A DNA stretch of 39,075 nt from Armatimonadota bacterium (GTDB lineage Bacteria > Armatimonadota > UBA5829 > JAUSEB01): positions 1 through 39,075 of the forward strand of contig JAUSGG010000089.1 in assembly GCA_030649165.1 (NCBI GenBank). The letters run 5' to 3'. The position numbers were made by a program, and so were the translations under genes. Shown in pieces: positions 26,185-28,336 of this stretch (its first letter is position 1; every line of letters begins with the position of its first letter). The notes below the pieces were generated by a model. It saw only the letters and a program-made list of their open reading frames with translations. It did not search any database and was not told the DNA's origin.

Positions 26185-27443
26185 GGCAACTCCACCCACT
26201 GAGCAGGAACGGACTCGACCCCACTGACACGTATGCGCACCGCATGCAGGCCGGCGGAGAGACCGGGCGGCACACGGAAAAGAATAGTGGCATCATCGAT
26301 CACCTTGAACTGGCCGGGTCTGGGATCGTTGGCGCCGGTCCCCTCTGAAAGAGGCACGGTTCCGAGCAACACCTCAGCCTTGCCGCCGGCGAACCCCCAT
26401 CCGCCGATCCGGATGGGATCGCCCCCAGCAATCGGCCCGCCCGCCGCGTCAACAAGGGCGGCGATGCTGAACGGCGTGGCATTGGATCGCACCGCTTTCG
26501 CATCTCCGTTCGGCAGGTCATTGCCCGCCAGCAACTGATAGACGCCCGGACTCGGAGCGTTCGCCCGCGGAATCGTCAAGCTGAACCTGTCTTTCGTCGA
26601 GGCGTGGGCGTCCACCCATTCAGCGGTCACGTTCTGTTCACTGCCGTCAGGCCGCAGAAGATACACATTGTCCGACTTCCCTTGCGCCCCAAGGTTGAGT
26701 CCGTATAGGAGGAAACTCGCGTCCGGAGTCGCCGTCGCCGGAGACAACTCATACGCCCGGGGGTTGTTGTCTGGCCCAGTATAGGTTACTCGGCGGAATG
26801 TGCCGATCACCTGAACGGCGTCGGCAGACGACAAATCGGTTGGACCAGCCTCGACAGTCCATGCCGTCGGTTTCTTGGCGGCCTCTGGAGGCCGCTCGGG
26901 AGTCATGAACACCACGCTGACCTTATAGACAACCGACAGCCTCAGCGGCTTGGTGGTTGCTTGCCACAGCCGGCCCAATTCGTCCGCGGTTTCTATCTCC
27001 ATCGTCACAAAGAAGTCCTTTGGCGGCCCGAGGCTGTTGACCTGGATGGTCGGATGATCATGGAAGTATTTCAAGACCGTGCTCATGGCCTGTTGCTCCA
27101 GAATGGAGTTTCCGTCGCAGTGGGCGGTCACGAGGTAGTACAGGTCCAGCGCGAGCGGCTGAAGCTGTTTCCCGGACGCAGTCTGAGAGCCACGGTCTAT
27201 AAGGGGGTTGCGCTGGAACTTGTCCTGGGAAACATGGAACAGGTACAGACTTATCCAGAATGGATTGTCGCTATCGCCGATATCGGGCGGATTAGCCGTG
27301 ACAAAGGGTTTCACATCCTTGCCCTTCCAGAGCGGACAAGATTCGAGAGACGGAGGACCTTCGATATACTTGCTCAGTATCTCTTTGAGGTAATCGGTCA
27401 CAACAGACAGATCCAGTAGCCCAATATCCATTGTGACGCCCAT
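26181..27443 (-). CDS. DUF4255 (Afp16/Pvc16-like tube-sheath terminator/cap) with ~200 aa C-terminal extension
   Basis: The N-terminal region has DUF4255-like motifs (ISLYLFHVSQDKFQRN; PLALDLYYLVTA). TAATG coupling with the upstream gene. The C-terminal beta-rich extension (IRIGGWGFAGGKAEVLLG...) is unassigned. Confidence 0.55.
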   Translation of the reverse strand: MGVTMDIGLLDLSVVTDYLKEILSKYIEGPPSLESCPLWKGKDVKPFVTANPPDIGDSDNPFWISLYLFHVSQDKFQRNPLIDRGSQTASGKQLQPLALDLYYLVTAHCDGNSILEQQAMSTVLKYFHDHPTIQVNSLGPPKDFFVTMEIETADELGRLWQATTKPLRLSVVYKVSVVFMTPERPPEAAKKPTAWTVEAGPTDLSSADAVQVIGTFRRVTYTGPDNNPRAYELSPATATPDASFLLYGLNLGAQGKSDNVYLLRPDGSEQNVTAEWVDAHASTKDRFSLTIPRANAPSPGVYQLLAGNDLPNGDAKAVRSNATPFSIAALVDAAGGPIAGGDPIRIGGWGFAGGKAEVLLGTVPLSEGTGANDPRPGQFKVIDDATILFRVPPGLSAGLHAVRIRVSGVESVPAQWVELP

Positions 27444-28336
27444 TACCCTTGCCTCAGTCCAAAGAGTGATGTAAATCCGCGCGCAAGCGCTCCGGCAGGC
27501 CGCGGTCTCGCAGGCTGCCGCGCCGGAGGCTTCGGTGTCGGCGCCTCTACGACCTGCACATCAATAGAACCGATGTGTACGGCCGCGGGCTGCTTTGCCG
27601 GCTCTTGCGCGGGCGCGGAATGCGAAGCCGGAGGCGCCGCAACGTTGTCGGACTGGCGCTCACGCGGCGCCGAAGAAGGAAGCAGTATCGGGTGACGGCG
27701 CGCCTGTGAAGGTGTCCCCCTCCTTCTCCTCGGCGTTTCGAGTCGGAGCGCCTCGGCAAGCTCCGCCGGTCGATCCGGTGGGAATACCTCTGGCTTGGGA
27801 GCTGCGCTGGAATTGACGGTCTCAGGCTGACTCAGGCTTTCCGCGCGGCTAACTTCCTTGTGTGAGGTCTCCGCCGGCTTCTTCCGAAGTCGGGCCGCGG
27901 ATGGTATTTCGCCGTCCAATGGAGACAATGGGGATTCCGAATTCGTGCTCGGCTCGCCCGCGAGCGACGCTCGCGTCCGCGGCGGCTTCGGCGACGGCGT
28001 CAGCTTCAGATCCTTCGGTAGCAGAGCGCCGGCGTCGCTGCCGAAGGATGCGCCAGATTGCCGATCCCTCGGTTGCATAGCGCCGGCGTCGCTGCCCAAA
28101 GACGCGCCAAATTGCCTATCCTTCGGTTGCACAGCGCCGGCGTCCCTGCCCAAGGACGCGCCAAATTGCCTATCCTTCGGTAGCAATGCGCCGGCGTCGC
28201 TGCCGACGGGCAGGCCGGATTCCTCGACCGGTGGTAGGGGGTCCTGTGTCCGCACGAACCGGCGCGGCGGCGTCAGTACCTGTAAACCAACGGGCTTCCG
28301 ACCCGCAATCCGGCCAAAGTATGATATCCGGGACAT
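27443..28336 (-). CDS. Pro/Ala/Ser-rich repeat protein with 4 tandem 18-aa repeats (DAGALLPKDRQFGASLGS); possible tape-measure-like or linker component
   Basis: The ORF is tightly coupled on both sides (TGATATG; TAATG). 54-bp tandem DNA repeats at 28013-28228. The composition is low-complexity. No family is recognised. Confidence 0.5.
   Translation of the reverse strand: MSRISYFGRIAGRKPVGLQVLTPPRRFVRTQDPLPPVEESGLPVGSDAGALLPKDRQFGASLGRDAGAVQPKDRQFGASLGSDAGAMQPRDRQSGASFGSDAGALLPKDLKLTPSPKPPRTRASLAGEPSTNSESPLSPLDGEIPSAARLRKKPAETSHKEVSRAESLSQPETVNSSAAPKPEVFPPDRPAELAEALRLETPRRRRGTPSQARRHPILLPSSAPRERQSDNVAAPPASHSAPAQEPAKQPAAVHIGSIDVQVVEAPTPKPPARQPARPRPAGALARGFTSLFGLRQG
28013..28228. repeat. 4 x 54-bp in-frame tandem repeat inside gene 27443-28336
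   Basis: Units start ccttcggtagcagagcgccggcgtcgctgccgaagg..., and each contains a palindromic core. Confidence 0.8.

Follow-up and report, generated by a model that had tools for sequence, protein, structure and literature searches.

How does an extracellular contractile injection system (eCIS) set the length of its tube if no recognizable tape-measure gene is present? The question is raised by a 39,075-nucleotide (nt) stretch of DNA from an Armatimonadota bacterium (assembly GCA_030649165.1, contig JAUSGG010000089.1; hereafter the window), whose minus strand carries an Afp/PVC-type eCIS operon. In the place of a tape measure, this operon has a gene for a 297-residue protein with an internal tandem repeat, which is the target of our analysis. 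Homologues of Afp14 are absent from lineage II eCIS (PMC6899500), haloarchaeal contractile injection systems (CIS) occur without cis14 (PMC11566945), and the CIS of Streptomyces coelicolor is reported to have a strikingly uniform length of 268 nm even though "the corresponding gene is absent" (PMC12237407; PMC10066040). Two Streptomyces studies have proposed tape-measure-related effectors, Tme and Sle1 (PMC11126660, PMC13277306). We find that the target is not peculiar to the window; it belongs to a conserved, widespread and unnamed family, the gp26-linked, predicted disordered core proteins of lineage-II-type eCIS, by which we mean the lineage with a gp26-like gene directly after the tube gene. 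Whether these proteins are functional equivalents of a tape measure we regard as an evenly balanced question, and we weigh it below.

The target gene and its two conserved parts are located as follows.

27443-28336, minus strand: target gene, an open reading frame (ORF) with ATG start encoding 297 residues (ORF listing and translation)
28235-28336, minus strand: conserved N-terminal module, residues 1-34, starting MSRISYFGRIAGRKPVGLQVLTPPRRF (alignments A4 and A8)
27443-27586, minus strand: conserved C-terminal module, residues 251-297, AAVHIGSIDVQVV...LARGFTSLFGLRQG and then the stop codon (alignments A4, A5 and A8)

The gene is translationally coupled with both of its neighbours: its ATG follows the stop codon of the upstream gene, which encodes a 256-residue protein, at a distance of 1 nt, and its TAA overlaps the ATG of the downstream cap gene by 1 nt (27441-27445). 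Both the ORF and its Pro/Ala/Ser-rich character had been noted in an initial annotation made from the sequence alone, and both hold: the middle region contains 14.0% P, 13.5% A and 13.0% S, and the whole protein is rich in Pro, Ala, Ser and Arg. It is basic, with a net charge of +14 and a pI of 10.8. AlphaFold2, run with a 43-sequence alignment, predicts an intrinsically disordered protein (mean predicted local distance difference test score, pLDDT, 54; predicted template modelling score, pTM, 0.17), in which the sole secondary structure is a five-residue helix at residues 6-10 and pLDDT rises locally to about 82 over residues 261-280 of the C-terminal module. We obtained no match of the target to any Pfam family with hmmscan even at E≤1, including CIS_TMP (PF19268), none to a PHROG or NCBIfam family, and none for its family in a sequence search against PDB chains.

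Word-indexed searches, with the protein alone or with a 7-sequence alignment, returned only the target itself and two relatives. This appearance of an orphan is an artefact, because low-complexity words swamp the candidate list of the word index; synteny and HMMER recovered the family. In each of six contigs fetched via relatives of the 256-residue protein, the next gene downstream encodes a protein of 261-323 residues without a Pfam domain, and in five of the six it precedes a Pvc16_N gene. In Polyangium (L004) the family gene adjoins baseplate genes, with the cap and ATPase genes located apart from it. Using the tube protein as anchor, we collected 80 further loci, one genome per species, from Acidobacteriota, Proteobacteria, Planctomycetota, Cyanobacteria, Chloroflexota (Ktedonobacter), Bacteroidota, Nitrospira, Methanothrix and Actinomycetota (Streptomyces, Rhodococcus, Mycobacterium and Actinoplanes). 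A gp26-like gene directly follows the tube gene in 82 sequences (the window, the six contigs and 75 of the 80 loci). Of the 72 loci whose sequence extends 1 kb or more past the gp26-like gene, 69 have a detected family member, and the remaining three hold a hidden one, which is N-masked (L074), split across frames (L022) or missed by the regular expression (L077). The family gene starts at most 10 nt from the gp26-like stop codon in 66 of the 69, and most often the next gene is that of the Pvc16-type cap. An HMMER search over 1.84 billion representative proteins yielded 197 members (E≤1e-3), with matches driven by the C-terminal module; the window protein matches the C-terminal profile with an E-value of 2.7e-21.

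Three tube matches have no eCIS genes behind them (L073, L079 and L064, with tubes about 55-57% identical to that of the window); these represent either orphan paralogues of the tube gene or pieces of loci that are split. The split member L022 comes from an alphaproteobacterial metagenome-assembled genome (about 8273-9075), with its two end motifs in different frames (N-terminal, 8273-8869; C-terminal, 8524-9075), which could reflect a frameshift, a pseudogene or an assembly error. On a Streptomyces anthocyanicus plasmid (NZ_CP109276.1), the eCIS cluster includes a member of about 294 residues at about 6540-7425, ending ...RLSRPGVVFGLGQG; it is an open frame that the incomplete PLSDB gene table does not list, where an 885-nt gap lies between the gp26-like and DUF4255 genes. 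The locus tags of S. davawensis (sheath BN159_7570, tube initiator 7578, spike 7580) match the gene order of the lineage exactly, and since the tag numbering fits in this way, its CIS appears to belong to the gp26-linked lineage, in which case BN159_7573 would be a family member. The literature searched contains no description of this protein family.

All members share the same anatomy. About 30 N-terminal residues are conserved (M.R.SYL..IA.R...P.L.PP, present in the window protein as MSRISYFGRIAGRKPVGLQVLTPP), with S5, Y6, L21, P23 and P24 invariant in alignment A4. The C-terminal part of about 47 residues consists of VHIGxIEVxI, a Pro-rich stretch and LxRGFTSxFGLRQG as the terminal residues; in the window protein it reads AVHIGSIDVQVV...LARGFTSLFGLRQG, with the stop codon directly after. 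Between the two lie about 200 residues that cannot be aligned and are basic and rich in Pro, Ala, Arg and Ser (P 16.6%, A 15.9%, R 9.6%, S 8.8%). The family falls into two clades, with tubes roughly 60-79% (clade A) and about 54-62% (clade B) identical to the window tube. Clade B keeps the core strand as VxIGRIEVRA and has variant ends (MSDYLxxLAxRSL...PRL.S.FEP at the start, LSLDEYLRQR near the end); none of 26 clade-B members matches any Pfam family. The median pI of the family is 10.5 and 78% of the members are net positive, while the neighbouring structural proteins are acidic. The lengths are distributed as follows, with the window protein, at 297 residues, on the family median.

Clade A loci (n=42): median 297 residues, standard deviation 37, range 232-444
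Clade B loci (n=24): median 295 residues, standard deviation 49, range 236-410
Full-length representatives (n=87): median 297 residues, standard deviation 42

That the target could be a spurious ORF or a low-complexity artefact of GC-rich DNA might be argued from its lack of Pfam, PHROG and NCBIfam matches, from a third-position GC content that gives no clear frame mark and from the missing entry in the Streptomyces plasmid gene table, but this is refuted by the conservation of both ends, in frame, over at least 70 loci of many phyla and 197 database proteins, besides the translational coupling to both neighbours, and we give it next to no credence.

The position of the target is best seen against the genes that surround it.

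29636-31243, minus strand: sheath, 535 residues (PF04984 and PF17482, Phage_sheath_1 / 1C)
29115-29624, minus strand: tube, 169 residues (PF06841, T4_gp19, E 1.8e-35)
28338-29108, minus strand: gp26-like protein, 256 residues (PF12322, "T4_baseplate")
26181-27443, minus strand: cap or tail terminator (Pvc16_N, PF14065, E 1.8e-28, plus a TIG-like domain)
24100-26199, minus strand: Afp15/Pvc15-type AAA+ ATPase (PF00004, E 1.7e-30, and PF22977)
21610-22737, minus strand: hub/spike (Phage_GPD)

In phage P2 the genes run FI-FII-E/E'-T-U-D, with T as the tape measure. The order in the window (sheath, tube, chaperone-like gene, target, terminator/cap and, further on, the gpD-like hub) parallels this arrangement. 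The initial annotation had placed the target in the tape-measure slot of what it took for a P2-like operon. The operon is instead an eCIS, carrying Pvc16_N, an AAA ATPase, eCIS_core/DUF4157 and CIS_tube proteins, yet the placement stands and is strengthened by the parallel order and by the gp26-type gene directly upstream.

The product of this upstream gene matches PF12322 (E 4.8e-8) and phrog_150 "baseplate hub", has hundreds of relatives in database searches and contains four invariant cysteines (C83, C88, C189, C192). Its fold is predicted with high confidence (pLDDT 94). Compared with predicted viral structures, the model matches entries for T4-like baseplate hub assembly proteins, hub subunits and hub assembly chaperones, with E-values down to 1.8e-9, and among solved structures it is most similar to tail assembly chaperones of phages; a sequence search against PDB came back empty, and likewise Foldseek of the model against PDB. 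The gp26 protein of T4 is classed as a chaperone of hub assembly (PMC3004832). The protein thus resembles a T4 gp26-type hub-assembly chaperone and is a candidate chaperone for the target. Its length and its cysteines agree with the initial description as a 256-residue Zn-ribbon protein, whereas the further suggestion that it might itself set tube length gives way to the chaperone assignment. No paper in the literature searched links PF12322 to a CIS.

Scans of the operon proteins against Pfam, PHROGs and NCBIfam showed no tape-measure family among them, in agreement with the initial annotation; profile searches with the target and its neighbour, as it had proposed, gave a tape-measure match for neither. 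Homology of the target to Afp14 is ruled out: when the family alignment of 43 sequences (A8) was compared by hhalign with Afp14 of pADAP (L105:2022-3626; 535 residues, annotated "contractile injection system tape measure protein"), the probability was 0.05% and the E-value 0.81. The protein encoded upstream of the sheath gene was likewise rejected as a tape measure, being non-helical by eye and without a family match.

Because of the P2-like order, the universal co-occurrence, the lack of an alternative gene, the conserved ends with a length-conserved middle and the basic chain, we propose that the target is a non-homologous, disordered functional equivalent of a tape measure, a reading to which we assign about even chances. 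Under this proposal, the gp26-like chaperone encoded just upstream would hold the target protein, whose C-terminus would dock on the complex of hub and tube initiator. The disordered, positively charged middle would lie in the lumen during polymerisation of the tube around it, and the N-terminus would mark the point at which the Pvc16-type cap closes the tube. The property under selection in the middle would be the length of the chain rather than its sequence, and the middle would therefore be free to turn over by in-frame tandem duplication. We infer each of these elements, namely the lumen location, the partner of each end, the ruler function and the effect of repeat number on particle length. 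The tube lumens of the solved AFP, PVC and Anabaena systems are negatively charged (PMC8894136), and the basic composition of the target fits residence in such a lumen.

For a quantitative comparison, Alg14 of AlgoCIS is a demonstrated ruler with 0.229 nm per residue, and the slope across systems is 0.2156 (bioRxiv 10.64898/2026.05.27.728243). At these coefficients, 297 residues correspond to about 64-68 nm and one 18-residue repeat unit to 3.9-4.1 nm, whereas a chain extended at 0.31-0.36 nm per residue would reach about 92-107 nm. The ring rise of solved tail tubes is about 4 nm; equating one repeat unit with one tube ring is, so far, numerology.

Several points weigh against the proposal. 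Neither in sequence nor at the profile level does the target resemble any tape measure, as seen from the failed alignment with Afp14 and the missing CIS_TMP match, and we infer rather than observe its presence in the particle or the lumen. The tape measures of eCIS are predicted to be mainly α-helical in their centre (bioRxiv 10.64898/2026.05.27.728243), of which the model of the target shows nothing. At about 0.22 nm per residue the chain spans only the shorter of the above distances, and about 107 nm would need a nearly fully extended chain. The spread of lengths in the family (232-444 residues) indicates a loose constraint. Finally, a different protein, the DUF4157 protein Tme of S. davawensis, has been proposed as a tape-measure relative (PMC11126660).

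A bolder form of the proposal is that the gp26-linked lineage (Acidobacteriota, Actinomycetota, Cyanobacteria, Proteobacteria, Chloroflexota, Bacteroidota, Armatimonadota and Methanothrix) uses a new class of ruler, a basic disordered chain of about 300 residues that is unrelated to the helical tape measures, has a larger rise per residue and evolves in length by in-frame duplication, including the capture of a palindromic element resembling repetitive extragenic palindromes (REP), with 18-residue steps close to one ring. We consider this possible but would not expect it on balance.

Among the closest known systems are Afp14/Pvc14/Alg14 (PF19268) of lineage-I eCIS, which belong to the same kind of machine and with which the target would share the task of setting length from the lumen; it adjoins the cap gene, and the ATPase gene is nearby. 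It differs from them in having no sequence or profile similarity, in its size (about 300 residues, against 535 in Afp14), in lacking predicted helices where they have a predicted mainly α-helical centre, and in gene position, since it follows the tube and chaperone genes and is always paired with a gp26-like gene, whereas theirs follow a fibre gene. In the modules of phage tape measure and chaperone (P2 gpT/gpE-E', lambda gpH/gpG-GT, T4 gp29/gp26-gp51), the order is tube, chaperone, measuring protein, terminator. The target likewise lies after the tube gene and directly downstream of a chaperone-like gene, whose gp26-like product has a domain resembling tail assembly chaperones. No frameshift-extended form of the chaperone was seen, although no search was aimed at one. 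The tape measures of phages, extended helical coiled coils with about 0.15 nm per residue (the rise of an α-helix), include no family homologous to the target. Conserved ends and a tolerant middle are known from YscP of the Yersinia injectisome and FliK of the flagellar hook, rulers with functional ends and a repeat-containing middle in which length matters and not sequence; duplications and deletions in YscP change needle length linearly. These proteins are parts of unrelated machinery, are exported through the very structure that they measure and have no homology to the target, so that the comparison is an analogy only. Tme and Sle1 of Streptomyces (PMC11126660, PMC13277306) are proposed lumen proteins of CIS without Afp14, and Tme is largely disordered. 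Tme differs from the target in its size (>2000 residues), DUF4157 domain, transmembrane helices, coiled coils and nuclease domain, none of which the target has; Sle1 contains a coiled coil of 440 residues, whereas the target has no coiled coil and is a separate, constant gene.

Of the explanations that compete with a ruler, the one that survives best is that the target is an assembly factor or scaffold absent from the finished particle, whose two end motifs on a flexible tether act with the gp26-like chaperone in hub assembly or cap recruitment. Such factors exist in T4, where gp26 and gp51 act as chaperones on the hub and the particle lacks gp51 (PMC3004832). A protein predicted to be fully disordered, with short conserved motifs only and a wide tolerance of length (232-444 residues), would suit this role, and neither the target nor the gp26-like protein matches a PDB chain in sequence searches. 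A simple tether, however, would not need so constant a length, which centres at about 297 residues in both clades although their tubes differ markedly in identity to the window tube; moreover, the basic composition suits an acidic lumen and no other gene of the operon could explain length control. We therefore consider a pure assembly factor unlikely.

The target could also be a plug of the lumen or a tether for cargo, with its C-terminus at the spike or tube initiator in the manner of Cis6 and its chain or N-terminal motif recruiting or retaining DUF4157 effectors loaded by the ATPase. The operon does encode an ATPase and two effector-like eCIS_core (DUF4157) proteins, cargo loading in AlgoCIS needs the ATPase and an N-terminal loading sequence (bioRxiv 10.64898/2026.05.27.728243), and Cis6 plugs the spike cavity and extends a loop into the lumen (PMC8894136). 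Against such a role, the family is present whatever the effector content of the locus, and Polyangium keeps it beside the baseplate genes, with the cap and ATPase genes elsewhere. Cis6-type plugs (Afp6/Pvc6) are small, which makes the conserved 79-residue protein encoded after the ATPase gene the better candidate; this protein may be a Cis6-like plug. A plug or tether function of the target thus seems rather doubtful to us.

According to a third alternative, another protein is the real ruler, either a DUF4157/Tme-type protein or the 686-residue SPFH/Band_7 protein encoded on the plus strand at 1082-3142, and the family has nothing to do with length. Tme of S. davawensis (DUF4157, >2000 residues) is remotely tape-measure-like and co-purifies with spike and tube initiator (PMC11126660), and the SPFH protein has a weak match to CIS_TMP (E 0.027). 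With 14.2 bits, this match is far below the cut-off of 27.8, overlaps Band_7 and lies on the opposite strand outside the operon; we judge it spurious and probably an artefact of a helical region. The two DUF4157 proteins of the window (459 and 483 residues) look like effectors, with an HExxH core and Cys-rich or globular C-terminal parts and, by eye, no coiled coil or long helical region, and were rejected as tape measures. In addition, DUF4157 genes vary in number and position among loci while the target family is constant. A different ruler is accordingly improbable.

Returning to the proposed tape-measure equivalent, the repeats in its middle region give an indication of how this region evolves.

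28001-28216, minus strand: in-frame tandem array of a 54-nt (18-residue) unit, about 3.6 copies (Tandem Repeats Finder, codon-aligned copies)
23814-23862, minus strand: extragenic copy of the palindromic unit (repeat families D2 and D3; alignment A1)

Tandem Repeats Finder reported a single array within the target (28009-28204, period 54, 3.6 copies, 88% matches, score 294). The codon-aligned copies read GLPVGSDAGALLPKDRQF / GASLGRDAGAVQPKDRQF / GASLGSDAGAMQPRDRQS / GASFGSDAGALLPKDLKL, all in frame and without insertions or deletions; they differ at several residues, have pairwise identities of 82-88%, and the first and last are partial. The four exact 18-residue repeats of the initial annotation are thus confirmed as a tandem array with a period of 54 nt, but not as exact copies. 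Its suggestion of a recent expansion fares worse: because the copies are just 82-88% identical, no very recent expansion is indicated, and perfect hairpin arms are found within the gene only in the 3'-most copy (28009-28048).

Every 54-nt unit holds an imperfect palindrome of about 40 nt (TCCTTCGGCAGCG-ACGCCGG-CGCTCTGCTACCGAAGGATC), and the earlier observation that this element also occurs between genes proved correct. Its pattern has 7 matches against 0.35 expected by chance, and the window contains one extragenic copy besides the coding array. This copy lies directly 3' of the stop codon of the 79-residue ORF (23868-24107) and has a 1-nt deletion relative to the coding copies. A metagenome scan that demanded perfect arms, and whose count is therefore a lower bound, matched 17 contigs. 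In six of them (L087, L091, L092, L099, L100, L102) the loop and some of the flanking sequence agree as well, and the palindrome occurs there in unrelated contexts, either shortly after the end of a gene or where two genes converge. No Rfam model covers it. Hairpins are predicted for the intergenic copy (−28.3 kcal/mol, z only −2.05) and for coding copy 4 (−27.7 kcal/mol, z only −1.28), and coding copy 2, like the other diverged coding copies, folds no better than shuffled sequence. Because the same arms and loop sit extragenically in six unrelated metagenome contigs, we assign the 54-nt unit, on the evidence of its sequence, to dispersed REP/REPIN-like extragenic palindromes, present here as a translated in-frame array. 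It resembles REP/REPIN elements in being an imperfect palindrome of about 40 nt with extragenic copies 3' of genes (one such copy in the window), and differs from them in forming four head-to-tail copies inside a coding region, translated in frame with a period of 54 nt.

No other family member carries the REP-like palindrome. Many have in-frame tandem duplications of their own (69 nt ×2 in L003, 36 nt ×2.8 in L029, 33 nt ×1.9 in L047 and 18 nt ×2.7 in L031), and no close variant of the target with a different copy number was found in the searched databases. The repeats are therefore a lineage-specific filling of the hypervariable region, which evidently turns over through duplication, the duplicated material in this case being a captured palindrome.

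The spacer that contains the extragenic copy (23681-23867, between the 79-residue ORF and the tube-initiator gene) holds, besides the REP-like hairpin, two more palindromes, CCCTCTCCTATAAGGAGAGAGGG and CCCCCTTCCTCTTAGGAGCGGTTAGGGGGAGG. Possible readings of this spacer are a group of extragenic palindromes and a terminator or attenuator acting inside the operon. Other short tandem arrays in the window are located at 33313-33384 (24 nt ×3.0, in or near the polysaccharide deacetylase gene), 408-448 (20 nt ×2.0), 6340-6381 (15 nt ×2.8) and 3176-3214 (7 nt ×5.6).

The remaining genes of the operon, all on the minus strand, complete the eCIS.

23868-24107: 79-residue protein, no family
23027-23680: tube-initiator-like protein (CIS_tube)
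22741-23016: 91-residue protein, no Pfam family
19696-21075 and 16981-18432: two eCIS_core (DUF4157) proteins
18790-19545: CHAP and peptidoglycan-binding protein (CHAP, PG_binding_1)
16118-16495: gp25 (GPW_gp25)
13759-16116 and 11303-13762: two Baseplate_J proteins
6157-11301: two large distal proteins, one with DUF6519 and Beta_helix, the other without a family

The tube protein is 70-79% identical to the tubes of six related loci (alignment A6); its nearest solved relatives are the tubes of AlgoCIS (7adz) and tCIS (7b5h), with E-values of about 1e-11, and the tube of the Streptomyces coelicolor CIS (8bl4) is a distant match (E 0.001). The 79- and 91-residue proteins are conserved in position in related loci, the former after the ATPase gene and the latter, which has only a weak PHROG match to "baseplate wedge subunit", between tube initiator and gpD. 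DUF4157 genes differ among loci in number, size and place: both lie between gpD and gp25 in the window, two directly follow the ATPase gene in Microcoleus (L003, 11059-12774), and one of 1497 residues is located upstream on the other strand in Polyangium (L004, 1-3018).

Just upstream of a conserved 272-residue gene that precedes the sheath gene, the minus strand has a full match to a sigma-70-type promoter (TTGACA-18-TATAAT, 12/12, at 32147-32176), which is likely the promoter of the operon. The TTG listed as the start of this gene (32176) is the −35 box, so that the true start is probably an ATG about 60 nt downstream. Directly upstream of the operon, on the same strand, are genes for a polysaccharide deacetylase (32273-33580) and a bacterial α2-macroglobulin of 1469 residues (33881-38290).

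For a lineage of eCIS defined by its gp26-like gene, these results name a specific, universally co-occurring candidate for length setting, together with its likely chaperone, and the end motifs allow the family gene to be found where annotation pipelines miss it. The in-frame array is also an example of a mobile extragenic element, to judge by its REP-like form, that is tolerated and possibly used in coding DNA. A ruler role is plausible and can be tested in culturable hosts, such as those of the Streptomyces anthocyanicus plasmids, probably S. davawensis, Polyangium, Ktedonobacter and Microcoleus. If the target is indeed a disordered ruler, it would offer a simple handle on the particle length, and hence the cargo capacity, of engineered injection systems, and it would show that phage-tail-like machines have solved length control twice, by independent means.

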